From: a virus
Length of the DNA stretch: 43,262 nucleotides
Strand: one strand, 5' to 3'
IMG/VR virus record: IMGVR_UViG_3300045974_000152
Span: 1-43,262 of that record
Shown: positions 3,272 through 43,262 of the stretch, piece after piece
Numbering within the stretch: position 1 is the first letter of the stretch
Layout: every line of letters starts with the position of its first letter
Position numbers and translations under genes: made by a program
The notes under the pieces: model-generated
What the model saw: only the letters and a program-made list of their open reading frames with translations
Databases searched by the model: none
What the model was told of the DNA's origin: nothing

Positions 3272-3451
3272 TCATGCGGCCTCCAATGTTTCGGCGTCGG
3301 AATCACACACCAAAGCTGTGTCGTACACGGCCCAGTTGGCGTTATAGAACCGAGCTAGTATAGCGGTGTGGTCGTTGTCAGCAACCAAGACCCACTCACC
3401 GAGCGGCGAGAACGTTTCAAGATCTTTGATAGTATAGGCTGGGATGTACAT
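3272..3451 (-). CDS. Hypothetical protein (59 aa, below track cutoff)
   Basis: Hand translation gives MYIPAYTIKDLETFSPLGEWVLVADNDHTAILARFYNANWAVYDTALVCDSDAETLEAA. The start shares one base with the upstream stop (TAATG). Confidence 0.55.
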   Translation of the reverse strand: MYIPAYTIKDLETFSPLGEWVLVADNDHTAILARFYNANWAVYDTALVCDSDAETLEAA

Positions 3452-3663
3452 TATTTCACCAACCGTAATGGAAGTGGTTGAAGAGGCTCACTACGTACTA
3501 CGGTCTTAGCCTTGCGGCGTTCGTAGCTGTTTAAGTCCCGCATAACAGTGCTAGCATCTTCTAAACTTCTCCACATAGAGTGTGTCACGTTTGTTGTAGT
3601 GTTTACGATATGGTAAGCGTTAGGTTCAGTTCCTTTGATAACTTTAACTTTATAGTAAATCAT
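3451..3663 (-). CDS. Hypothetical protein (70 aa)
   Basis: Track ORF with GGGAG upstream of the ATG at 3663. Confidence 0.65.
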   Translation of the reverse strand: MIYYKVKVIKGTEPNAYHIVNTTTNVTHSMWRSLEDASTVMRDLNSYERRKAKTVVRSEPLQPLPLRLVK

Positions 3664-3668
3664 ATTGT

Positions 3669-3755
3669 TTACTCCCGAATGCTGATGATAAAATGAACTA
3701 CTACTAAGCCAGTTGAGAAGTACAAGAAAGACGTTGAAACGATTTCGTTAATCAT
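3669..3755 (-). CDS. Hydrophobic micro-ORF (28 aa) MINEIVSTSFLYFSTGLVVVHFIISIRE
   Basis: ATG at 3755 with AAAGGAAC 7 nt upstream. The 18-nt leader is identical to that of the micro-ORF at 3814. Confidence 0.45.
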   Translation of the reverse strand: MINEIVSTSFLYFSTGLVVVHFIISIRE

Positions 3756-3766
3756 ATTAAGTTCCT

Positions 3767-3814
3767 TTAGTTGAAGATGATGTAAACTAAGATGAAGATT
3801 GCGATGGTCATCAT
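3767..3814 (-). CDS. Hydrophobic micro-ORF (15 aa) MMTIAIFILVYIIFN
   Basis: ATG at 3814 with the same AAAGGAACTTAATATGAT leader. The stop lies inside the SD of the next micro-ORF. Confidence 0.4.
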   Translation of the reverse strand: MMTIAIFILVYIIFN

Positions 3815-4264
3815 ATTAAGTTCCTTTGTTACGTTCTGCTTACGTACCTATCTATTGCAGACGACATGCCACGTTGCGTAGTGTTGTAATCACTAAAGAA
3901 TCGCCCATCTTATGACATTAATTGTCGACGAACTATTAGGCAGCTAACATTATATGACACAATTTAGTGACAATAAACGTTACATTGCTTCGTGCACTAT
4001 ATAGAGCAGTTACTCTACTCATGGCTTGACGTTCAGAGCGTAGCGATAGGACTAACAAGCGTTAGTCATAGAGCGTTAGGAGATGAGAGAACGTATTGAA
4101 TACACATGCGTATGTTGTGCGTAAGTGATGAGGATGAGGAGTGTGTGAGAGATAGCGATTCGCGTGCCAACATCCCAGCTATCTACCAAACAGATCACAT
4201 GCATGGGGCATGCCAGGACATTGTACATGGCGTAGGGGTGTACCCCCTCCCCACCCACGCGAAA

Positions 4265-4293
4265 TTGAGAGTGGCATGATGTTTGTATACTAT
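4265..4293 (+). promoter_or_regulatory. Weak sigma70-like promoter candidate (TTGAGA-17-TACTAT)
   Basis: Hexamers and spacer read directly. A TATAAT also lies at 4300-4305. Confidence 0.25.
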
Positions 4294-4406
4294 CCCCTAT
4301 ATAATTTTTACTATTTTTAAACGTTCTCCCACCACGTTTAGTAGTGCGTTACGTAGGGTAGGTGCGCACAGTGCGTATAAAGCTCGTATAAGTCAATTGT
4401 GTGCGT

Positions 4407-4505
4407 CTAATGATGTACCCTGAGCGATGGTACGGGTACTATTCGCACCTCATCGTGAGGGGTACATTTTTTTGAACTTCGTACATTCGCCTTCCCAAGG
4501 CTCAT
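4407..4505 (-). CDS. Candidate micro-ORF A (32 aa) MSLGKANVRSSKKCTPHDEVRIVPVPSLRVHH
   Basis: Paralogue of micro-ORF B. They share MS..ANV[RH]S and IVPVPS, and every nucleotide difference in the IVPVPS codons is synonymous. No SD is present. Confidence 0.3.
   Translation of the reverse strand: MSLGKANVRSSKKCTPHDEVRIVPVPSLRVHH
4413..4473 (+). terminator. Terminator-like hairpin plus T7 run on the + strand
   Basis: atgtaccc (4413-4420) pairs with gggtacat (4460-4467) and is followed by T through 4473. It is antisense to micro-ORF A, so the two readings compete. Confidence 0.3.
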
Positions 4506-4581
4506 TATGCGTTTTTTGAATAATAAACTAAATCTTTATTCACCGTTTGGATTTACCTTAGTAAACAAAAACTTAACCCTC

Positions 4582-4605
4582 TTAGTGGTACAAAATGACA
4601 GTATT
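4582..4605 (+). promoter_or_regulatory. Degenerate copy (19/24) of the conserved GTGGTAC motif
   Basis: ttagtggtacaaaatgacagtatt compared with atagtggtacaatttaacagtata. Confidence 0.35.
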
Positions 4606-4689
4606 AGATTGTTTAGTGAACGACGTAGGGAGCAAGTGCGACCTACTAGACACGGTGTAGCTGACCTTCGCTATCCCAAGGGGCTACGG

Positions 4690-4773
4690 TCAGCATGTAT
4701 AGTGTGAGGGAACGGGAACGATGAGTAATGCCCGAACAGTACTGTGTACATTCGCTTCCCCTTGGAAGCTCAT
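4690..4773 (-). CDS. Candidate micro-ORF B (27 aa) MSFQGEANVHSTVRALLIVPVPSHYTC
   Basis: ATG at 4773 with AGGAAA 4-5 nt upstream. Paralogue of micro-ORF A. Confidence 0.35.
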   Translation of the reverse strand: MSFQGEANVHSTVRALLIVPVPSHYTC

Positions 4774-4931
4774 GGTCTTTCCTAAACAATGAGGTACTGT
4801 CTTCGATTTAGATAGTTAATATAATGTTAATTGCCCCCACCCAGTTCACTGGACTTCCGGGGGTCGTTCGGGCAGACGATACTGTCAAGCGGGGGGACTA
4901 AAAATCCCCCTGCGGTACTTATGAGGTTGCT

Positions 4932-5141
4932 GTGGCTACAAAGAAGTTGCGTGGTAAAGGTACTATCAATATCGACGATCAGATCATCCGCTGGAGACAG
5001 AAGCTCGAGAAGGAGTCTATCGTACTTGGTAAGCATACCGCTAAGGACAAAGGACGTAGTAAGCGTCAACGCGCCGGACAAAAAAAGGACGCTCTCGTAG
5101 CCAAAGGTAAGTTCAACTTCTTCGGTGGAGACGACGAATGA
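4932..5141 (+). CDS. Small basic protein (69 aa); possible DNA-binding or small-terminase-like role
   Basis: GTG start with GAGG 6 nt upstream. Lys/Arg-rich. ATGA-coupled to the HNH gene just upstream of terL. Confidence 0.55.
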   Translation: MATKKLRGKGTINIDDQIIRWRQKLEKESIVLGKHTAKDKGRSKRQRAGQKKDALVAKGKFNFFGGDDE

Positions 5142-5602
5142 TTTGTGTTGTTTGTGGTAAAACGGAAGAAAAACACCAATGGTATTCCGGTCCCACTTGT
5201 TCAACCTGCTATGTCCGTAAAAACAGTAAACGCGCTAGGGAACTAGCAATCACCCGAGCCGGGGGTTTAGAAGCTTTTAGGGCAAAGGCTAGAGAACGCC
5301 GCAAAGCTAATCCAGAGGCGTATAAAAACTACTTTAAAAATTGGTATAAACGAGACGGGAACAAAGATAAGGTTTTAGCCAACACTTCCGCTCGTTGCAG
5401 GGGTTTAAAACAACGGACTCCTAAATGGCTGTCCGAGTCTCAAAAGCAAGAACTCGTAGACATCTACACCTTTCGTCATCCAGACTACCATGTTGATCAT
5501 ATTATACCCCTACAAGGTAAAGATGTGTGTGGGCTCCATGTCCCATGGAATCTTCAATACCTACGTATAGAAGACAACCTTAAAAAGGGTAATAAGGTAT
5601 AA
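5138..5602 (+). CDS. HNH endonuclease (packaging-associated)
   Basis: 154 aa. N-terminal CxxC...CxxC. HNH core HVDHIIPLQGKDVCGLHVPWNLQYLRIEDNLKKGNK. Directly upstream of terL. Confidence 0.8.
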   Translation: MICVVCGKTEEKHQWYSGPTCSTCYVRKNSKRARELAITRAGGLEAFRAKARERRKANPEAYKNYFKNWYKRDGNKDKVLANTSARCRGLKQRTPKWLSESQKQELVDIYTFRHPDYHVDHIIPLQGKDVCGLHVPWNLQYLRIEDNLKKGNKV

Positions 5603-7020
5603 TGAGTACAATTGATTTAAGCAAGCTCTTTCCAGAAGCGGCAGATGGAACGCACAAACCGCTTCCCCGCCAATCGGAGTTCTTAAAGAACGTCCTAGAC
5701 CCTAATGGTCCACAATTCGTGGCTTACTACGGCGGGTTTGGATCGGGGAAGTCCGTGGTCTTATGTGCCGCTGTTTTAACGCAGGCGGTCTTATACGGTG
5801 GTGATTGGTTAATCAGCCGTATGTACATGCCGGAATTACGCCGTACCACTATGAAGGCGTTTTTAGACATGTGCCCAAAAGAACTCATTTTAGAGGTTCG
5901 GGTAGCAGATGCGGAGATTCATTTAAAATCCGCTAATGGTAAGGCTGTAGTTTACTTCATCGGGCTAGACACCCCCGAAAAAATTGACTCCATGAACTTA
6001 TCTGGTTTTGCCATAGATGAAGCTTCGCAAACAACCGAAGAAGCTTTTCTAAAGCTACAAGGTCGTCTCCGTAATAAAAAGGGTTTGCGTAAAGGATTAG
6101 TGGTCGGAAACCCCAAGGGTAGGGATTTCATATACCGGTTTTTTGTGTCTAAGATCGCGGTTCAACCGAACATGCGCAACAAGTACAAAATGATTGTTGC
6201 CCCCTCCACTGAAAACGTACACCTTCCCGAAGGTTACGTTGAAAACCTGCTCGGTTCGTACTCTAAAGAGCGTATCCAGCGTGACATCATGGGTTCGTTT
6301 GACTCCTTCGAGGGTATGATTTACAGCGAGTTTGACCGTAACATCCACGTTGTGGCACCTTACGAGATTCCCAAAGAGTGGACCCGTATTATTGGGCTTG
6401 ACCATGGCTTCAGTAACGCCACTGCCGCTATGTTTGGTGCCGTGGATCACGACGGCAACATCGTCATTTACAAGGAATTCTATCAATCCGAGTGGATTAT
6501 TAAAGACATTGTACAAAAAGGTCTTACCCCCCTCATAGGGGCTGACCGAATCGATGGTATTTACATAGATCCTAGTACTAGAGCCAAAAAAGGCCAATTA
6601 GGGCTCAGTGATTATAGTGCTTATTTAGAATACTTGTCACAAAAAATACCACTTATTTGTGCCAACAACGAAGTTTCTACCGGGATTGACCGAGTTAAGA
6701 CTTTCATGCGCCTACACCCCAAGTCTAAAAAACCACGACTGACAATTTTTGACACATGTATCAACCTTCTCGATGAAATCGGTGAGTATCGTTGGCAGGA
6801 GTTGTCCGCGAACCAGCAAGGCACTAAGAACGCACATGAAGCTCCGCGTAAATACCACGATCACGCGGTCGATGCTCTTCGTTATCTGGTAATGTCTCGC
6901 CCAGACCCATCAAAACTCGAGAAAAAAGACAAATCGTTCTGGACTATGGAGTCTTCCATTCAAAAAGAGCTGGAAAGTATCCGTAAGCCAAAGGAAAAAG
7001 ACCCATTTCAAGATTATTAG
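5602..7020 (+). CDS. terL: Terminase large subunit
   Basis: 472 aa. Walker A YYGGFGSGKSVV, Walker B-like FAIDEASQ. C-terminal nuclease-like acidic motifs (IIGLDHG, HDHAVDALRY). Confidence 0.85.
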   Translation: MSTIDLSKLFPEAADGTHKPLPRQSEFLKNVLDPNGPQFVAYYGGFGSGKSVVLCAAVLTQAVLYGGDWLISRMYMPELRRTTMKAFLDMCPKELILEVRVADAEIHLKSANGKAVVYFIGLDTPEKIDSMNLSGFAIDEASQTTEEAFLKLQGRLRNKKGLRKGLVVGNPKGRDFIYRFFVSKIAVQPNMRNKYKMIVAPSTENVHLPEGYVENLLGSYSKERIQRDIMGSFDSFEGMIYSEFDRNIHVVAPYEIPKEWTRIIGLDHGFSNATAAMFGAVDHDGNIVIYKEFYQSEWIIKDIVQKGLTPLIGADRIDGIYIDPSTRAKKGQLGLSDYSAYLEYLSQKIPLICANNEVSTGIDRVKTFMRLHPKSKKPRLTIFDTCINLLDEIGEYRWQELSANQQGTKNAHEAPRKYHDHAVDALRYLVMSRPDPSKLEKKDKSFWTMESSIQKELESIRKPKEKDPFQDY

Positions 7021-7774: not shown

Positions 7775-8028
7775 TGTTTGGACCGTGCAAGGTATGTGCA
7801 GAGAAAGATAAGCGTGTTTCGTCTCTCGAGACTGAGATTGCGTTCCTCCGCACCCTTGTACGGCCCCCTGTTAATAACCGCCAATTGTCCGCCATTGAAT
7901 ACGAGGCGGATGGAGTTATGGGCGGTCAGACCGACCAAATAGAATTACAATCCCACTCGCAACTACGAGAGGAAGAGGATCAGGCCGTGCTCGACGAGCG
8001 TGATGCGATCCTTAATGGAAGTTATTAA
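7774..8028 (+). CDS. Hypothetical protein (84 aa)
   Basis: TAATG coupling at both ends. Confidence 0.55.
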   Translation: MFGPCKVCAEKDKRVSSLETEIAFLRTLVRPPVNNRQLSAIEYEADGVMGGQTDQIELQSHSQLREEEDQAVLDERDAILNGSY

Positions 8029-10310
8029 TGGCAACCAAAAGCAACGGTAACGACAACGCAAGTACGTCCGTAAACACAAGCGGAAACGATATTGACATTA
8101 CTCGTATCAGTAATGACGAGCCAGATCGTCTTGCGTCTGCCATTGAATCGTTCTACAAACAAGACGGCACTAAGAAGACCCGCCTCTCCTATCACTGGGA
8201 GCGCAACATGCGCATGCTCGACGGTGATCAGTGGCTTGTGTTTGGTGGTAGCGGCGGAACTGGCATGTACCAGTGGAACACACTCCAAGTCTCCAAAGCT
8301 AACGAGTATATCCCACGTCCGGTAACAAACTACCTTTTTGATTGCTATCAAACTTTAAAATCTTATCTTACTAAAACCAAACCCCGTTCTACGGTTAAAC
8401 CCAACACGCAGACGTACCAGGACAAAGCCGCAGCTAAAGTTGCAGAGCTTTGTATTGAGGCAAACTACGAACGTCTAAAAGACCAGGAGAACTATGAATA
8501 CGCCGCTGCCGTTCTCATTACTTATGGAACCGTCTACAAGAAGACTTATTGGGATACTACTGCTGGTGGGAGCATTGATGTTTCTCCGATGGCTGATCCT
8601 ATGGCAGGAATCGCCGGAACCCTCCCAGCCCCGCAAGAACTCCCAAGCGTTAATCCCGAAACCGGCCAGCCAATGGAACCGGATTTTGCCGCGCCAAACA
8701 TGGCCGCGCCGCAACCTGAAAGTATTACGCTCGGGGATATTAATACAGTCGTCAAGGAGCCATACTGCATGGCACTTGATCCTCTGGCTACGGATCTGCA
8801 TACCGCTCGTTGGATCATGGAATTTGCGATTCAGCCCCTCGACTGGATTCGCGAAATGTATGGTAAACACGACGAGGGCTACACGGGCCGCGTTGATGAA
8901 GTTAAACCGGAACAGCAACTTTCTGGTTCGATGCGCCGTTTCTACCAGCTTAAAAATTCTTCCGGCGTTAAAAATGCCGCCACACTTGAGGGTGTTGGTA
9001 ACAACGACACGGGAACCCAGCAGCTCGCTAACGCAGCAGTCGTAAAAGAATACTATGAAAGACCTTCTTCAGATTATCCTCGCGGCAGGCTTGTGGTTGT
9101 CGCTAATGGCGTTACTCTCTACGCAGGGGAATCTCCGTATAGCGGTCCCGACTCTGGAGACTGGCACCCATACTCCGAGTGCCGATGGGAGATAGTCCCG
9201 GGTCGTTTTGAAGGTAAATCTCCTCTCGACGCCGCTTGCGAACTCCAGAAGCGTATTAATTCTATCGACGCTACGATCATGCTCGTGCGTAAGACTCAGG
9301 CTATCCCGCAGAAGCTTGTCCCCGCTGGTTGTGGTATCGAACCGGGTCAGTGGACTGGACGCCCAGGACAGCAGCTCTCGTACCGCCCCGACGTCGGTAT
9401 GCCGTCTACCGTACCTGCCGCAGGTGTTGACTCACAGGTCTTCAAAGAACGTGAACAGTGTGTAGAAGACATGAAGACGATCACTGGTGCTATTGACATT
9501 CTGAAGGGTGACCGCCCGCCAGGTGTTAACGCAGCCTCCGCTCTCGCACTTCTTTACGAAGTAGGTACCGGTAAGCTTTTCCCGGTCCTCGACCGTTGGA
9601 AGCGTTTCGTAGAGAATGACCAAAAGAAAGAACTTCGTCTTATTGCTAACAAGTATAAAGAGCCTCGTGAAGAGTATATTAAGATGCTCAAGAAGGCGAA
9701 CAAAGAACTCTCCGCAGGTGACATCGAAAAGTTCCTTGGGCAAGATCTTTTAGATAACTGCAACGTCATCGTTGAATCCGGTTCTAACGTACCGAAGCTC
9801 GAGTCGATGAAGCAGATGCGTCTCCAGGAAGCTGCTCAATCCGGAGCTGTCGATCTTACCCAGCCTATCAACCGCATGGAATACCAGCGTCAGATGGGCA
9901 TCGTAGGGTTTGATAACGACGTCGGCCCTGATGCGAAACGCGCACTGTGGGAAAACGATTGCTTAGATAACATTTTACTTAACCCAGATAAGAAGCCTGT
10001 AGTTCTTACCTGTGACGATGACGCGGTTCACATCTCGACTCACGAACGTCGCATGAAAGAGCCATCGTGGATGGAACTCGATCAAGGTATTCAGCAAGCT
10101 TACATGGCGCACGTTGAAGAGCACCACACTGCTCAAGCGCAAAAGATGCAAATGCAGCAGATGCAAGCGATGGCGATGGGTCAACCTCCGGGGCAGGAAG
10201 CTTCCGGAATGGATCCAACACAAGCACAGGGACATGGCAAGGGCGCTCCGGAAAGTATGCAGAAGGCAAGTGCGTCTTCTGATATTCCACCAGGGAGTGA
10301 ACCTAGATAA
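8028..10310 (+). CDS. Portal protein
   Basis: 760 aa and the largest head-module ORF. Positioned between the terminase and the scaffold/capsid genes. Gln/Met-rich C-terminal tail. Call is based on size and synteny. Confidence 0.75.
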   Translation: MATKSNGNDNASTSVNTSGNDIDITRISNDEPDRLASAIESFYKQDGTKKTRLSYHWERNMRMLDGDQWLVFGGSGGTGMYQWNTLQVSKANEYIPRPVTNYLFDCYQTLKSYLTKTKPRSTVKPNTQTYQDKAAAKVAELCIEANYERLKDQENYEYAAAVLITYGTVYKKTYWDTTAGGSIDVSPMADPMAGIAGTLPAPQELPSVNPETGQPMEPDFAAPNMAAPQPESITLGDINTVVKEPYCMALDPLATDLHTARWIMEFAIQPLDWIREMYGKHDEGYTGRVDEVKPEQQLSGSMRRFYQLKNSSGVKNAATLEGVGNNDTGTQQLANAAVVKEYYERPSSDYPRGRLVVVANGVTLYAGESPYSGPDSGDWHPYSECRWEIVPGRFEGKSPLDAACELQKRINSIDATIMLVRKTQAIPQKLVPAGCGIEPGQWTGRPGQQLSYRPDVGMPSTVPAAGVDSQVFKEREQCVEDMKTITGAIDILKGDRPPGVNAASALALLYEVGTGKLFPVLDRWKRFVENDQKKELRLIANKYKEPREEYIKMLKKANKELSAGDIEKFLGQDLLDNCNVIVESGSNVPKLESMKQMRLQEAAQSGAVDLTQPINRMEYQRQMGIVGFDNDVGPDAKRALWENDCLDNILLNPDKKPVVLTCDDDAVHISTHERRMKEPSWMELDQGIQQAYMAHVEEHHTAQAQKMQMQQMQAMAMGQPPGQEASGMDPTQAQGHGKGAPESMQKASASSDIPPGSEPR

Positions 10311-27603: not shown

Positions 27604-28391
27604 TTTGCTCTCCCTTTCAATGAAGCGCGTTTTTCTTTACTAAAAAGATTGTTCTTAGACCCGGACTCGGAGTGCCACGTTCCACAAGCCTTACATTGAA
27701 GGCGGCGGAATTTACCCGACTTCGAGTAGTTAAACCCACGGTGCTGTTGTTCATTAGATCCACACGTAGGGCATACTGGACGGGTGTCGTCGTTATACAC
27801 CCGGAAATCGTGAGGGTTATGCCATACGATAAGGGTGTTATAAAGCTCCTCAAGGGACAGCACGTCGAGCTTATTATAATCGCGCATTTCGTTGTACGCG
27901 GCTAGGTTACCCGCCATGCACTCTTTCCACATGGAGAAGCCATCGAACTTCTTGTGTTTAGACTTCTTGTACTTAGTGTTAAGCTTGTCGGTTAGGTACT
28001 CGAGCTTGTTGGACGTAAAGCCGAAGCTCTTAGTAGCAAGCTTCTTAGTGTCTATTTGCTTATAAGGCTTCGGAGGTTTGTAGCCGTTAAGAATAAATCG
28101 TGCATTGAGCTTCTTGTGGTCAAAAGCACTACCGTAATGCCAAACAACGATATCCGCCTCATCGAGCAATTTCCAAATGCCTTTAAGGACTCGCTTGTCG
28201 TCCCTCGGCTTATCACCACGAACATCATCATACATGACCTCTTTTTCACCGAGCCATTTAGCCGACCACGAAAGAATGGTCCAATCTTCGGAGATTTGAC
28301 CCAGGGAGATGTTTTGATCAAACAGTCCCCACGTCCAAACTTCTAATGGTAGTGTTTCAATATCGGCAATCAGGATTTTGGGTTTATTCAT
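27588..28391 (-). CDS. DnaQ/RNase H-fold 3'-5' exonuclease with C-terminal zinc ribbon
   Basis: 267 aa. ExoI LIADIET, ExoII HYGSAFDHKKL, ExoIII YNKLDV. CPTCG...CKACG. Confidence 0.65.
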   Translation of the reverse strand: MNKPKILIADIETLPLEVWTWGLFDQNISLGQISEDWTILSWSAKWLGEKEVMYDDVRGDKPRDDKRVLKGIWKLLDEADIVVWHYGSAFDHKKLNARFILNGYKPPKPYKQIDTKKLATKSFGFTSNKLEYLTDKLNTKYKKSKHKKFDGFSMWKECMAGNLAAYNEMRDYNKLDVLSLEELYNTLIVWHNPHDFRVYNDDTRPVCPTCGSNEQQHRGFNYSKSGKFRRLQCKACGTWHSESGSKNNLFSKEKRASLKGRAKCGEK

Positions 28392-28810
28392 TCTAACTCC
28401 TGTTTATAACCGCGTTCTACAAGTAGAAGTTGGATACGTTTAAGTCTGCGTTGCACCGTCATAGTACTTACGTAACCAAACTTTTTAGCAATGTCCCTTA
28501 GAGACAAATTGTGAAAGTATTTAGCTTCAAACAACTCTAAGTCCCATTTATCGAGAATACCGTAGTTTTTAACCCTGTCAAGCATTACTTCTGGGCTATG
28601 TACTGGGAACATGACTTGAAATACACTCATACTAGTACTGGCGGCCACTTCGTCACCTATGTAACGTGTTTTACCGTCGTTCATCTGGGGTAGTAACGCT
28701 TCTAAGTGTTTGCATGGTACGCCGTTACTCATGTCGCAGTTATGGACACAGGCCCATTCTCTTTGCTTGCTCACGGAGCACCTCCAACCCGTCCTGGGTA
28801 TGTATGTCAT
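28388..28810 (-). CDS. Sigma-70 region 4-like HTH protein (candidate transcription factor)
   Basis: 140 aa. LSLRDIAKKFGYVSTMTVQRRLKRIQ resembles sigma r4 / LuxR-type HTH. GAGAAGGA SD precedes the ATG at 28810. An alternative ATG at 28732 would remove the 71-nt overlap with the primase gene. Confidence 0.45.
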   Translation of the reverse strand: MTYIPRTGWRCSVSKQREWACVHNCDMSNGVPCKHLEALLPQMNDGKTRYIGDEVAASTSMSVFQVMFPVHSPEVMLDRVKNYGILDKWDLELFEAKYFHNLSLRDIAKKFGYVSTMTVQRRLKRIQLLLVERGYKQELE

Positions 28811-32591: not shown

Positions 32592-34400
32592 CTAGTCCTC
32601 CCATTTCGTCATTATACCACTGCTCTCGGCCTTAAGAGCTACGGTCAGGTTTATATCCTCTCCCACCTTTTTCATCGCGTCAAGGAGGATTTTTTCGCCT
32701 TCTTCGGCTTTCTCTTTTTTGACTTGGATAACAATTTCGTCGTGGACGCTAAATAAAGCTCGTCCAATTCCGCGATGTCGAAGCATTTCGTCTGCAAGAT
32801 ATAAAGCCCTGCTAGTACAATCCGATCCCGTACCTTGCACAAGCGCGTTCCAAGCTTGTCTGTAGGCAGAGTCCCAAGCTTGTCGTTTACGGACATCAAA
32901 ACGGCGCCGACGTCCAAAAGGGTTAATGATAGGTTCTCCATCATCAACTCGTCTTGCGCACTCATCCATAACCTTTTTCTGGCCGGAGTAAGTTTCCCAG
33001 TACTTGTCATATGCTTCTTTCCCCTTTTGCTCGTTAACACCTAAGACCTTGGAAACTTTATAATGACTGCACCCGTACTGCATTCCGAAGTTGACGGTTT
33101 TCGCAAGGTTTCGGGGTATATTAAGTGAAGCTGCTGTAATGTCATGCTGGGATATTCCCTCATTAACAATTCGAAGAAGGTTCTCATCTCGGGTAAAGTG
33201 CGCAGATAGACACACTTCCAGTTGCGAGAAGTCTGCGGAGATGAAGACGGTCCCCGGGTCTGGAACGAACATTCCACGTATGCCACCCGTTCGGGGGAGA
33301 TTCCCCATGTTAGGGTTTGAGTGAGAAATGCGTCCAGTTGCGGTACCGGCAACGTTGAAAGAAGGGTAAATTCTTCCTTCAACCATTCTCTCCAGAGTGC
33401 CCTCGATATACGTTCCATAGATCTTGTTCGCCTCTCTATATTGCTGGATCATGTCGATAACAGGGTGCTTGTCCTTGATCTTCTCGAGCGAGTCATAGTC
33501 CACGCTGACAGACTTAGTCTTCTCGTTCTTCTGCACGGGTAATCCAAGCTTATCGTACAGTAGCGCAATAAGCTGCTTCGGGCTATCGAACGAAAACGTG
33601 GGACGTACCACCCGGGATTTACCCGCCTCAGTCTTCAGCTTGTCGATCTTCGCAATCCAGTCGTCACACTCGACTATAGAGATTTCGTCCGCAACCGCCT
33701 GGCGCATCTGAGGAAGAAGCCTCTCAATAGTCGTCTTAAGCTCCATGCCTTTTTGCATGAGGTAGGAAACGTCGATGGCGATTCCTGCGATTTCAGTACT
33801 GAGTAGTGAACGCTGGAGCGCGTGCACATGGGAAACAAGAGATTCTGGAACTCCTCCGGAGTGTAAACCCTCCCGGAATAGGTTATAGAGTCGTAAGGTA
33901 TAAGATACGTCTTTTCCATTATACGCTGCAAGTTCTTCTTCCGGCGCATCTTCCGCCTTTTTATACTTGCCCCAGAACTGCGTTTTGTAGTCGTCATTGA
34001 AGTACCTTTCTACGAGTGCTCCGAGTCCGTGCTCTCCGTTTTCGTCGAGGAGGTGGGATAGGATGAGTGTGTCGCTATAATCCACAGCAAGTACGCTAAG
34101 ATCGCACCCAGCCCAAGCAAGATGGCGAAGATCGAACGAAGCGTTGTGAAAAATGTACTTAAGTCCTGAGGGTCCTGTATTAAGTTCATGTAACATCTCC
34201 GGCCCGAAGAAGGCCACGTCATTCGCAGTCGGCCCTGTTACCGCCGCGCTAATAATCTTATCGGACCGTGTTAACCCCGTAGTCTCGATGTCGAGCGCAA
34301 CAGTGTCCTGGCCTTCCCTGGCCGTGTCCTCGAGCCAACCCCGTAGCTCCCCCGGTTTAGTGAGTTTAGTAATCTTAATCAAAGTGGATACCCGCCTCAA
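32592..34400 (-). CDS. Family A DNA polymerase with 3'-5' exonuclease domain
   Basis: 602 aa. Exo motifs ALDIETTG, HNASFDLRHL, YNGKDVSY. Pol motif A ISADFSQLEV, motif B RNLAKTVNFGMQYG, motif C SVHDEIV. Only TTG starts are available (34400 or 34382). Confidence 0.9.
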   Translation of the reverse strand: MRRVSTLIKITKLTKPGELRGWLEDTAREGQDTVALDIETTGLTRSDKIISAAVTGPTANDVAFFGPEMLHELNTGPSGLKYIFHNASFDLRHLAWAGCDLSVLAVDYSDTLILSHLLDENGEHGLGALVERYFNDDYKTQFWGKYKKAEDAPEEELAAYNGKDVSYTLRLYNLFREGLHSGGVPESLVSHVHALQRSLLSTEIAGIAIDVSYLMQKGMELKTTIERLLPQMRQAVADEISIVECDDWIAKIDKLKTEAGKSRVVRPTFSFDSPKQLIALLYDKLGLPVQKNEKTKSVSVDYDSLEKIKDKHPVIDMIQQYREANKIYGTYIEGTLERMVEGRIYPSFNVAGTATGRISHSNPNMGNLPRTGGIRGMFVPDPGTVFISADFSQLEVCLSAHFTRDENLLRIVNEGISQHDITAASLNIPRNLAKTVNFGMQYGCSHYKVSKVLGVNEQKGKEAYDKYWETYSGQKKVMDECARRVDDGEPIINPFGRRRRFDVRKRQAWDSAYRQAWNALVQGTGSDCTSRALYLADEMLRHRGIGRALFSVHDEIVIQVKKEKAEEGEKILLDAMKKVGEDINLTVALKAESSGIMTKWED

Positions 34401-34884
34401 ATACGAGATAATCTCTACCCTTATTAGGCATAGCTAATCCCGCACTGGAAATGTGATTATACCCTATGCTCATGAAGCTGTCCGTATCCCGCATACCAAA
34501 ACCGACGTCTGTGCAGAACTGCCCAAAGCCCCCCAGTACAGTATCCCGTGTCGTCATCAGGCAGGGGCCTATGAATGCCTTACCAAATACGCCCTCTTTC
34601 TGTCCCGGCTTAATTCCGAGTTGTGCCTTAAATAATCCCGCGCTTTTCCGACCATTACCGCCGTTATCGACGTAGCCCCCACCCTCAAACCCCGTATGAA
34701 TACCTTCCCATACGTACTCCTCACGGCGTAGTCCAAAGATCTTACTGGACCCGTCCGTAGTACCGTTCTGGATACTAGGTCCGAAATGTAAGCCCCAATC
34801 CGCTGCTAACACACCTCTAGCGCCTAGTACACATACTGCTGTAAGGAGTAACGTAAACACTATCAGTTTTGTCCGTTCTGACAT
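34375..34884 (-). CDS. pagL: PagL-like outer-membrane lipid A 3-O-deacylase
   Basis: 169 aa. Signal peptide MSERTKLIVFTLLLTAVCVLGARGVLA. The C-terminal IGYNHISSAGLAMPNKGRDYLVF aligns with the P. aeruginosa PagL active-site region as I recall it (AIHYSNAGLKQPNDGIESYSLF; His/Ser). Size matches (about 170 aa). Confidence 0.6.
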   Translation of the reverse strand: MSERTKLIVFTLLLTAVCVLGARGVLAADWGLHFGPSIQNGTTDGSSKIFGLRREEYVWEGIHTGFEGGGYVDNGGNGRKSAGLFKAQLGIKPGQKEGVFGKAFIGPCLMTTRDTVLGGFGQFCTDVGFGMRDTDSFMSIGYNHISSAGLAMPNKGRDYLVFEAGIHFD

Positions 34885-39115: not shown

Positions 39116-39261
39116 TGCCAGATCTCCTTCTTCGCCACACACTGTTCAATCCATACAATACGCGCACCACGCTCTCGGTCCGCCTCGCTCATGAACTTGA
39201 CCACAGGACGCACGGTTAACGCTGTCCACTCCTGAGAACACAGTAACATCAAAAGCGTCAT
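39112..39261 (-). CDS. Small protein (49 aa, below cutoff)
   Basis: Hand translated as MTLLMLLCSQEWTALTVRPVVKFMSEADRERGARIVWIEQCVAKKEIWQ. ATGA at both ends. Confidence 0.45.
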   Translation of the reverse strand: MTLLMLLCSQEWTALTVRPVVKFMSEADRERGARIVWIEQCVAKKEIWQ

Positions 39262-40820: not shown

Positions 40821-41231
40821 ATGGACGAGACAGTCGTCCAGGAAGCGCTTACTAGACAGGTAGCGACTATCCTTCTTGCCGGTACTTCGATCACGGATTG
40901 CGCCAAGCAACTAAGCATTACCCCCGCAGCGGTACGCCGCATTACGAGCTTGGATAAGTATAAAGAACTGGTAACCGCTACTGCGGAAGACGAACTTGCC
41001 CCGGCACTCGCTAAGGCTAAAGCGCAGCTTGCTAGGCTCACGACTAAGGCGGTTAAAGCTATTGAACAGGCTCTTGATTCTGGTAACTCCCGGGACGCTC
41101 TACAGGCGGCTACGATCGTCCTTAAGTCTGTCGGGTTACATGAAGAGAAAGAAGCGCAACAAGATACGAGTATCACGGTGGTACTCCCAAGCGGGATAGA
41201 ATCCCCTATTACATACGAGGTGAAAGAATGA
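40821..41231 (+). CDS. HTH DNA-binding protein (136 aa)
   Basis: Track ORF trimmed to the ATG at 40821. AGTSITDCAKQLSITPAAVRRI looks like an HTH, followed by a long helix. Confidence 0.5.
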   Translation: MDETVVQEALTRQVATILLAGTSITDCAKQLSITPAAVRRITSLDKYKELVTATAEDELAPALAKAKAQLARLTTKAVKAIEQALDSGNSRDALQAATIVLKSVGLHEEKEAQQDTSITVVLPSGIESPITYEVKE

Positions 41232-41551
41232 GTACTACGTTTCAACCCCTTTACGATAAGGTGCTAGTTATTCGCAGTCAAGCTGAAGAAGTCAGTGCGG
41301 CGGGCCTGGTTATTCTTGAGACTTCCCAACTACGGGAAAAGCCTTCTACTGGTATTGTTGTAGCAGTGGGCACGGGTCGGGTCAATGAACTAGGTCAAGT
41401 GCTCCCCCTCATCGTTAAAGAAGGGGATAAGGTACTTTTCGGTAAATACGCAGGTACTGATATTAAGCTTGACGGTGACGAATTTCTCATGATGCGAGAA
41501 GAAGACATCCTCGGTATCATTAAAGAATCTTCCCTTGTGAGCCTCGGATGA
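41228..41551 (+). CDS. groES: GroES (Cpn10) co-chaperonin homologue
   Basis: 107 aa. Aligns by eye along the whole length with bacterial GroES: PLYDKVLVIR..EEVSAAGLVILETS..EKPSTGIVVAVGTGR...VKEGDKVLFGKYAGTDIKLDGDEFLMMREEDILGII. Confidence 0.8.
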   Translation: MSTTFQPLYDKVLVIRSQAEEVSAAGLVILETSQLREKPSTGIVVAVGTGRVNELGQVLPLIVKEGDKVLFGKYAGTDIKLDGDEFLMMREEDILGIIKESSLVSLG

Positions 41552-42858: not shown

Positions 42859-43167
42859 TCAGTTCTGAATTCCACAATTAGCTAGCACTACAAAATTACA
42901 ACTTGCGTTGATCCCATTGGACCCGTACGAGCCCGGGGGAATCTCGGTAGTGAACCCGCCATTAGCGGAGTACGTTGCGTAGATTTTATTATTCACGCAG
43001 AAACCGCCTTCCACAAAGCGGGAAAGGTAGGTCGTAGTTCCAGGACAGAATTTAACGAAAGTTACAGAGCTTGCGTCAATCCCGTCCCGTCCGTTGTACC
43101 CAGTAGGACCTCGTCCGCAACCCATGAGAACTACTAACATAATCGCTGAAATTAATTTAAAATTCAT
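42859..43167 (-). CDS. Lipoprotein with short collagen-like GXY run
   Basis: 102 aa. Lipobox in MNFKLISAIMLVVLMGC. GPTGYNGRDGID gives four GXY triplets. The start lies inside the terminal repeat. Confidence 0.7.
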   Translation of the reverse strand: MNFKLISAIMLVVLMGCGRGPTGYNGRDGIDASSVTFVKFCPGTTTYLSRFVEGGFCVNNKIYATYSANGGFTTEIPPGSYGSNGINASCNFVVLANCGIQN

Positions 43168-43262
43168 GCAAACCCCTTTTCATTGTTATAATCAAACCAT
43201 TCCTGTTTACAGCTAGCGCATAATCCGTCGAAACAAGTTGCTTCGTCGCACATACCAGAACA
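43136..43262. repeat. Right copy of exact 127-bp terminal direct repeat
   Basis: Identical to 1-127. Confidence 0.95.

Follow-up and report, generated by a model that had tools for sequence, protein, structure and literature searches.

Conserved plus-strand hairpins, probably parts of a cis-acting leader RNA, lie where two micro-ORFs had been proposed ahead of a phage packaging operon

The IMG/VR virus record IMGVR_UViG_3300045974_000152 (positions 1 to 43,262, referred to here as the window) is a phage genome in which an initial annotation had noted two diverged copies, A and B, of a module of roughly 90 nucleotides (nt), and had suggested that they are paralogous micro-open reading frames (micro-ORFs) on the minus strand or structured RNAs. 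We conclude that the two copies probably overlap a cis-acting structured RNA in the leader of the late, packaging operon and do not encode peptides. Copy A is occupied by a 59-nt hairpin, SL1 (4411-4469, plus strand), and by a small hairpin, SL2 (4484-4506, plus strand). Comparison with relatives gives good support for SL1 and SL2 as conserved, non-coding base-paired elements that appear to be selected on the plus strand. Compensatory changes above the level of controls were found in SL1, in SL2 and in a hairpin further downstream.

Both hairpin sites lie within a gene-free region of 1.17 kb (3760-4930) that separates divergent operons. They were compared with the corresponding DNA of twelve relatives sharing this region, whose terminases are 67-86% identical (L124 is the closest, at 86%).

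Hairpin SL1

SL1 was defined from an alignment of 12 sequences (A1), by RNAalifold and with a covariance model (R1). The hairpin has a lower stem, AUGUACCC/GGGUACAU, and an upper stem, CGAUG/CAUCG, that are separated by a symmetric internal loop of conserved sequence (5'-UGAG/5'-UGAR; UGAG/UGAG in the window). This loop reads as conserved tandem G·A flanked by U·G (or U-A) and G·U. The apical region is about 21 nt long and contains ACGGGUAC. A run of seven Us (U7) directly follows SL1 in the window.

In the A1 alignment, 92.2% of cells are paired and 12 of the 15 pairs show changes on both sides. None of 500 shuffles reached any of the measures used, and sliding the pairing partner by 1-3 columns lowered pairing to 31-46%. 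RNAalifold predicts the identical helix, and model R1 recovers one SL1 per genome, at 48-70 bits. The upper stem varies in nearly every relative and is always complementary (CGATG/CATCG, CAACA/TGTTG, CAGCA/TGCTG, TACC/GGTA, CTATT/AATAG, CATAAC/GTTATG, CCTC/GAGG, GGTT/AACC). The lower stem is GTACCC/GGGTAC in close relatives and GTACTA/TAGTAC, GTACTG/CAGTAC, CTACCC/GGGTAG, GATACC/GGTATC or GCTATC/GATAGC in distant ones.

The plus-strand fold of SL1 is better than the minus-strand fold in 12 of 12 genomes (mean difference -6.6 kcal/mol), with 1-5 G·U pairs on the plus strand versus 0-1 on the minus. Because the plus-strand hairpin is the more stable one in every genome, we infer that pairing is selected on the strand opposite the proposed ORFs. 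In the window, the plus strand of 4405-4520 has a fold z of -3.4.

SL2 and its additional copy

SL2 is the hairpin of copy A and is located 10-20 nt past SL1 in every relative. It consists of an inner stem, GCCUU-ccc-AAGGC (4489-4501), a UC/UC internal loop and a short outer helix. Inner stems of the five clearest cases read GCCUU, GCUUCC, GCCCC, GCUUUC and GCUCC, with 3' arms that match. In the corresponding alignment (A5), 92.7% of cells are paired, 5 of 9 pairs show double changes, and the covariation score was reached by 0 of 500 shuffles. The 3-base-pair (bp) outer helix of SL2-type hairpins also covaries (CAU/AUG, UUC/GAA, CGA/UCG, UCU/AGA).

The letters reported for the two copies were confirmed. 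The sequence GTACATTCGC occurs at 4481-4490 and 4746-4755, the sole exact copies in the window, and each is followed by a hairpin (GCCTT-CCC-AAGGC, 4489-4501; GCTTCC-CCTT-GGAAGC, 4754-4769) and then by TCAT. The two hairpins are unlike in sequence and both are self-complementary. The motif TC-GC-stem-loop-stem-GC-TC is present exactly twice in the window, both times on the plus strand, compared with 0.38 in shuffled sequence. A two-copy module of about 90 nt was not recovered. The best local alignment of copies A and B spans 16 nt with a score of 25, which other places in the genome equal or exceed, and the copies have only about 25 nt in common. A covariance model of the large hairpin of copy A locates this hairpin once in the window (64.9 bits; the next best match has 11 bits, E 0.6). 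Given that there is no second SL1 in the window, we dropped the idea of two full modules. The suggestion of an RNA or DNA site stands in that the small hairpin is kept by covariation; the anatomy differs from that proposed, with a larger covarying plus-strand hairpin filling copy A.

The second motif match, copy B (SL2'; 4749-4774, plus strand), has the form CAU-UC-GCUUCC-ccuu-GGAAGC-UC-AUG and adds a further copy of the SL2 motif to the central, variable part of the leader. It is absent from the homologous site of the closest relative, L124, relative to which the window has about 27 extra nt after GTACATTC. The L128 alignment is too poor at this site to judge, and a motif scan found no second copy anywhere in the leaders of L124 and L128. 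In sequence, SL2' resembles the SL2 hairpins of distant relatives (GCTTCCCCTTGG...) more than it does copy A of the window. The initial annotation overlooked a third, weaker copy of the motif, ACCTTCGCTATCCCAAGG (4664-4681). It belongs to a hairpin seen in the window, GCUGACC...GGUCAGC (4660-4694, plus strand), whose loop holds the weak copy TTCGCTATCCCAAGG.

Minus-strand open reading frames

ORF A (4407-4505, minus strand; 32 amino acids, aa) is antisense to SL1 and SL2, and ORF B (4690-4773, minus strand; 27 aa) has its start codon in the covarying outer helix of SL2'. Both ORFs are present with the peptides given for them, and the initial annotation considered that they may encode two paralogous micro-proteins. 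Each ORF begins with ATG, and the peptides share the hexapeptide IVPVPS, whose codons (ATAGTACCCGTACCATCG versus ATCGTTCCCGTTCCCTCA) have five differences, all at codon position 3. A shared hexapeptide appeared in 9 of 5000 dinucleotide shuffles, and a sequence resembling a Shine-Dalgarno (SD) site, GGAAAG, is found at copy B only.

This pattern had been taken as a sign of selection on the peptide, and stops in the same frame of relatives had been named as evidence to the contrary. Such stops are present, and the start is not kept, which refutes the claim. No minus-strand ORF of at least 10 aa exists at the orthologous place in L124, ORF A is cut to a 13-codon GTG fragment in L128, and the frame is interrupted by stops in five others (L121, L131, L132, L140, L141). 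An ATG ORF in the frame of ORF A is found in only 2 of 12 genomes (the window and L142), and the CAT that provides its ATG reads TCG, TCTC or TCAG in relatives. The hairpin with the ORF B start codon is absent from the homologous site of L124, and the CAT in question is one arm of the covarying 3-bp helix. Start codons that lie in covarying helices, within hairpins that seem to be selected on the opposite strand, argue against micro-proteins.

The IVPVPS codons of copy A form the 5' arm of the SL1 upper stem plus the apical loop. Because the arms of SL1 change together, there are non-synonymous changes in the ORF A frame. The synonymous bias is confined to the six-codon match between the paralogues, whereas the orthologues have numerous non-synonymous changes (HDEVRIVPVPSLRVHH, HNKVRNTPVVLLRVRH, HSKVRIAIPVLLRVRH), which preserve base pairing. 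The DNA of both IVPVPS stretches consists of tandem hexamers (GGTACGGGTAC, GGGAACGGGAAC) in which a T-to-A change repeats with period 6, so the third-position pattern amounts to fewer than five independent events. The match sets GGUACGGGUAC of the SL1 apical region against the purine-rich GGGAACGGGAAC. We record the IVPVPS third-position pattern, which is not fully explained, as an oddity and see in it no evidence of coding. From the comparison with relatives we conclude that ORF A and ORF B are not genes, and a pair of micro-proteins at this place seems very improbable.

Short motifs recur in these leaders. The loop motif ACGGGUA(C/A) is found in different hairpins (window 4428-4438 and 4708-4719; L124 3893-3915; L128 ~3985; L132 5160-5181). 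It is in the SL1 apical loop in the window and L124, and in the last hairpin before the SD in L124, L128 and L140. Purine-rich GGGAAC repeats also recur, and GGGAAC-like strings were seen by eye in the leaders of L132, L133, L140 and L142. The recurrent ACGGGUA(C/A) may be a common ligand-binding motif, and at the DNA level it underlies the IVPVPS coincidence.

Leader downstream of SL2

A conserved block, ACTTAACCCTCTTAGTGGTACAAAATGACAGTATTAG (4571-4607, plus strand), is conserved in 10 relatives and precedes the opening gene of the rightward operon by 250-335 nt. Its role may be to bind a protein, to act as a promoter or to form part of the RNA. Right before the SD of the same gene are two covarying hairpins (4871-4916, plus strand), GGCAG-ACGAUA-CUGUC, then AAG, and CGGGGGG...CCCCCUG. 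In an alignment of 11 relatives (A4), 8 of 9 predicted pairs stay paired through double changes, and a loop (ACGAGAU) and an AAGUGG linker are conserved. The hairpins look like a translational operator or another RNA domain. GNRA loops (GCAA, GUGA) are present in the leaders of L130, L139, L140 and L142. Genes for two transfer RNAs (tRNAs), tRNA-Asn(GTT) and tRNA-Arg(ACG), are encoded on the plus strand of the L131 leader (737-893), in the stretch where the window has copy B. A search against Rfam 15 gave no match at gathering score in the window, none to E = 5 within 3600-5100, and only tRNAs in the 12 relatives.

Upstream blocks and sigma-54-like sites

Directly 5' of SL1 is a further conserved block, CGTATAAGTCAATTGTGTGCGTCTAATGAT (4385-4414, plus strand), for which the consensus of all relatives is cGTATAgGgCA....GTGCGTyTAAtGAC. 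Pairing of the SL1 5' flank with other leader segments, and a long-range helix (GCCCGAAC/GUUCGGGC), were considered, are not consistent in relatives and are not claimed.

A promoter-like block, TGGCATG-N4-TTGTAT followed by TATAATTTTT (4272-4310, plus strand), is conserved in position and orientation. It is 100-135 nt upstream of SL1 and faces the packaging genes. In relatives it reads TGGCATG-N4-TTG(C/T)AT, then (C/T)ATAATTTTT, then a C-rich, G-poor stretch (the L139 version is TGGCATGcggtTTGCAT). In spacing and in most of its letters, the first part agrees with a sigma-54 -24/-12 promoter. Set against TGGCACG-N4-TTGCW, the window has TGGCATG-atgt-TTGTA, with GT replacing GC, and L139 has TGGCATG-cggt-TTGCA. 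Runs or near-runs of C (or G) flank the promoter-like block (window 4243-4258; L121 ~3335-3345; L128 ~3400; L122 1-25; L140 1-14). The assemblies of L122 and L140 start at such runs, probably as a result of a sequencing or assembly break.

Sites resembling sigma-54 promoters, defined as having no more than 2 mismatches to TGGCACG-N4-TTGCW with the GG of the -24 element and the TG of the TTGC element kept, are 30-fold denser in the intergenic region (27 in 12.9 kb) than in the other DNA fetched (10 in 143 kb). Two perfect matches are present in L132. The pattern scan placed sites in the window at 3856-3871, 4154-4169 and 4200-4215 (minus strand) and 4272-4287 (plus strand), and in relatives at L132 4643-4816, L121 3255-3371, L139 2639-3064 and L142 2143-2619. 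A match at 39153-39169 is inside an apparent coding region and is probably due to chance. Many of the sites are palindromic (TGGYAC-N5-TTGCAATAGCAA-N5-GTGCCA), and on their sequence could equally be sites of a dimeric regulator. They may be promoters, roadblock sites or regulator sites.

Scans for sigma-70 promoters and terminators showed no enrichment over shuffles, and by eye neither conserved block fits a sigma-70 or Bacteroidetes-type promoter. The operator motif TAGTGACA is not enriched in the window. No relevant report of sigma-54-dependent phage promoters was found in the literature searched. The cluster of sigma-54-like sites is the more surprising lead from this region and, if real, would represent an unusual promoter class in phages.

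Genome context and relatives

The ends of the window are identical over 127 nt (1-127 and 43136-43262), which makes the window a complete, circular phage genome (about 43 kb; the closed assembly is ~43.1 kb). Because the assembly is circular, no physical terminus is visible. Genes below 3760 are leftward and those from 4932 to about 26750 are rightward. The rightward operon, which encodes packaging and structural functions, begins with a small basic ORF (4932-5141, plus strand; 69 aa) and continues with an HNH-like gene, the large terminase (5602-7020, plus strand), the portal (8028-10310, plus strand) and onward. The small basic ORF is kept directly upstream of the terminase in relatives, and neither it nor its homologues matched a family in Pfam or PHROG. 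The HNH-like gene (window 5138-5602; L001 353-808) was found only in the window and L001, and is absent from L124, L128 and L121. It probably entered as a mobile homing endonuclease and is less likely to be a fixed part of the packaging machinery.

Other products of the window include a family A DNA polymerase, a DnaB-like helicase, a primase, Rad52-like and YqaJ-like recombination proteins, an SLT lysozyme and small DNA-binding proteins. The largest ORF (954 aa) matches a tail spike. No RNA polymerase gene was found among the window proteins scanned, and a search of the window for tRNA and transfer-messenger RNA genes found none. Three small putative DNA-binding regulators are encoded (2236-2586, 2726-2947 and 28391-28810): an Rrf2-like protein, a protein with a PhaR-type PHB_acc_N domain, and a 140-aa protein with a weak helix-turn-helix resembling sigma-70 region 4. 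Any of these could read the conserved intergenic blocks. At the start of the leftward operon is a perfect 18-nt direct repeat, ATCATATTAAGTTCCTTT (3751-3768 and 3810-3827, 59 nt apart). Also identified were a GroES (Cpn10) homologue (41228-41551), a PagL-like lipid A deacylase (34375-34884) and a group 1 glycosyltransferase (1238-2239), which suggest a Gram-negative host. The strong SD sequences argue against a Bacteroidetes host.

The terminase of the window is less than 30% identical to that of any cultured phage, and window positions 3700-5000 had no match in GenBank phage DNA. Terminase searches returned one IMG/VR contig, three metagenome contigs and 531 database proteins at E <= 1e-80, many of the latter on contigs of about 44 kb. 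DNA was fetched around 10 of the 531, and L134 and L135 were added by pattern scan. In every relative, a gene-free region of 0.8-1.6 kb is located upstream of the homologous small basic ORF and terminase. The phage group is uncultured and known from metagenomes only. A scan of GTDB genomes with the 5' flank and an SL1 arm found no prophage and no clue to the host. Three matches, in Pseudomonas and Chloroflexia DNA, were set aside as chance, and two of them are clearly in coding regions. Scanning IMG/VR with GTACATTCGCNTNCCC gave at least 119 single matches, which is the chance level for 14 specified bases, and none with two copies.

Proposed function and alternative explanations

Rightward transcription of the plus strand would start near 4272-4310, at the conserved block that resembles a promoter. 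This would give a leader of about 630 nt with SL1 and SL2 at about 110-210 nt from its start, extending through the further covarying hairpins as far as the ribosome-binding site of the gene that opens the packaging operon. The two hairpins would act on the nascent or mature late transcript, through elongation, processing or stability. They may serve as a signal for pausing, attenuation or antitermination, or as a double-strand-specific site for processing or stability. The invariant tandem G·A loop of SL1 and the recurrent ACGGGU loop motif may be a docking site for a protein or for RNA polymerase. Hints of plus-strand transcription are the G·U bias, the plus-strand tRNA genes of L131 and the nearness of these elements to the SD of the next gene.

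Several points weigh against a cis-acting leader RNA. The promoter, the strand and the transcript ends are all deduced from the DNA. The block at 4272-4310 is no clean sigma-70 promoter, and its -12 element in the window is TTGT, not TTGC. No sigma-54 activator (Sigma54_activat/AAA+) was identified among the window proteins scanned, which comprised part of the ORFs of at least 90 aa; a host-supplied activator is possible. Because no activator was seen among these proteins and many of the sites are palindromic, we treat the block only as a likely rightward promoter. The 12 SL1 sequences are related, so the shuffle statistics overstate their independence, and the covariation of SL2 comes from five sequences. 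SL2 is imperfect in distant relatives (GCTTCCCCTTGGGCGC), where GCTTCCCCTTGGKCGC is conserved yet pairs less well; thus, part of the constraint on SL2 may be on primary sequence. A simple terminator role for SL1 does not appear to be general. The lower stem GTACCC/GGGTAC resembles short DNA palindromes (GGGTACCC, CCCTAGGG) that occur just upstream of SL1 in relatives, a hint of recognition at the DNA level.

These palindromes, which cannot form RNA hairpins, and an enrichment of GTAC keep alive a reading in which SL1, SL2 and the GTAC-rich palindromes are a DNA element, either a terminase recognition site (pac/cos) or a replication origin, with the inverted repeats bound by protein or extruded as hairpins in single-stranded or supercoiled DNA. 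GTAC occurs 12 times in the 731 nt of 4200-4930 versus 3.5 expected and clusters nowhere in the genome more densely than at 4201-4500, and GGGTAC/GTACCC units recur. Sites of the cos or pac type are often upstream of terminase genes, and the element here is directly upstream of the small ORF and terminase genes. An AT-rich stretch with TTAAC/GTTAA repeats follows SL2, and the assemblies of L122, L131, L135, L140 and L141 break in the region. The half-sites of a dimer-bound repeat could also covary. The upper stem of SL1, however, varies freely among close relatives that share a lower stem and is always complementary, which points to base pairing and not to shared protein specificity. The arms are about 40 bp apart, and in all 12 relatives one strand is favoured by G·U and G·A pairs. 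The contigs break at homopolymer runs of C or G, which are known to cause problems in assembly, and the circular window shows no terminus at which to place a packaging cut. We therefore regard a DNA-level element as unlikely, while taking it more seriously than the other alternatives.

A stand-alone non-coding RNA of about 170-220 nt, running from the promoter-like block to SL1 and U7, or to SL2 and GCGUUUUUU, and acting in trans, is rather less likely again. On this explanation the late genes would have their own promoter in the conserved block at 4571-4607, which separates SL2 from the leader further downstream. Seven Us come directly after SL1 in the window, and SL2 there lies inside a CGUA...UGCG helix that is followed by U6. 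U-runs past SL1 are also present in L124, L121, L140 and L142, but the run is missing in L128, L134, L130 and L139. At least four Ts follow SL1 in 5 of 12 relatives and no more than two in 4 of 12, which makes a plain terminator improbable. With its A-U-rich base, SL1 would terminate poorly, the 4571-4607 block fits no sigma-70 promoter at the spacings tried by eye, no target in trans is evident, and there is no Rfam family match.

With a cis-acting leader RNA as the preferred explanation, two false small-gene calls are removed and are replaced by a well-supported, previously undescribed structured element that has no family in Rfam and lies at the front of the packaging operon. With its invariant tandem G·A loop and its single copy per genome, SL1 offers a handle on the control of a 22-kb late operon in phages that lack an RNA polymerase of their own.

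Comparison with known systems

The put RNAs of phage HK022 (putL and putR) are cis-acting processive antitermination RNAs built of two neighbouring stem-loops that include non-canonical pairs; putR lies some 270 nt past its start site, and put suppresses termination via the zinc-binding domain of the RNA polymerase beta-prime subunit, without protein factors (PMC9378689). SL1 and SL2 are likewise two adjacent stem-loops with non-canonical pairs and total about 95 nt, compared with about 70-95 nt for this type of element. Their inferred position, in a leader downstream of a promoter and ahead of a long operon, would also be similar. In contrast, no similarity of sequence or model to put was found. 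There is a single SL1 per genome rather than a copy at each of two early operons; duplication is confined to the small SL2, whose second copy is missing from L124. SL1 and SL2 precede the late packaging operon and not early genes, and action on the polymerase is suggested here by analogy only. That SL1 and SL2 are a new, self-sufficient put-like RNA switch of a widespread uncultured phage clade, which modifies host RNA polymerase to read through the 22-kb operon from a sigma-54-type promoter set within a cluster of similar sites, is a long shot. If true, it would be the first phage group in which the early/late switch is run on sigma-54 and an antiterminator RNA.

RNase III processing hairpins of the T7 R0.3-R1.1 type occur in phage leaders and intercistronic regions. 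SL1 resembles them as a long irregular hairpin of about two helical turns, with a symmetric internal loop between upper and lower stems, in an untranslated region of a phage, and as such could stabilise or mature a transcript. The UGAG/UGAG loop and the lower stem are, however, far more conserved than RNase III sites need, and the apical region is large, at about 20 nt. Cleavage of SL1 is only a candidate function.

In the late leader of phage lambda (PR'-qut-tR', 6S RNA), a promoter and a terminator-like hairpin precede a late operon of more than 20 kb that includes the terminase genes. SL1 with U7 in the window resembles an intrinsic terminator ahead of a late operon with terminase, but the U-tract is not conserved in relatives. 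No Q-like antiterminator was identified in the window, and the conserved stem sequence of SL1 is atypical for terminators. Hairpin promoters of the N4 type (DNA hairpins with stems of 5-7 bp and 3-nt loops, recognised by a virion RNA polymerase) were also considered and rejected: the largest ORF matches a tail spike, and no RNA polymerase was found.

Repeated short motifs are a feature of pac and cos regions, such as the hexamers of P1 pac and the R sites of lambda cosB. The region of SL1 and SL2 adjoins terminase genes and is enriched in GTAC and GGGTAC. It differs in that the evidence for SL1 is intrastrand base pairing with a strand bias.

In summary, SL1 and SL2 resemble HK022 put and the RNase III sites of the T7 type in their predicted anatomy, without showing the features that would place them in either group. 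They belong to the broad class of structured phage leader elements, as a member that has so far been uncharacterised.

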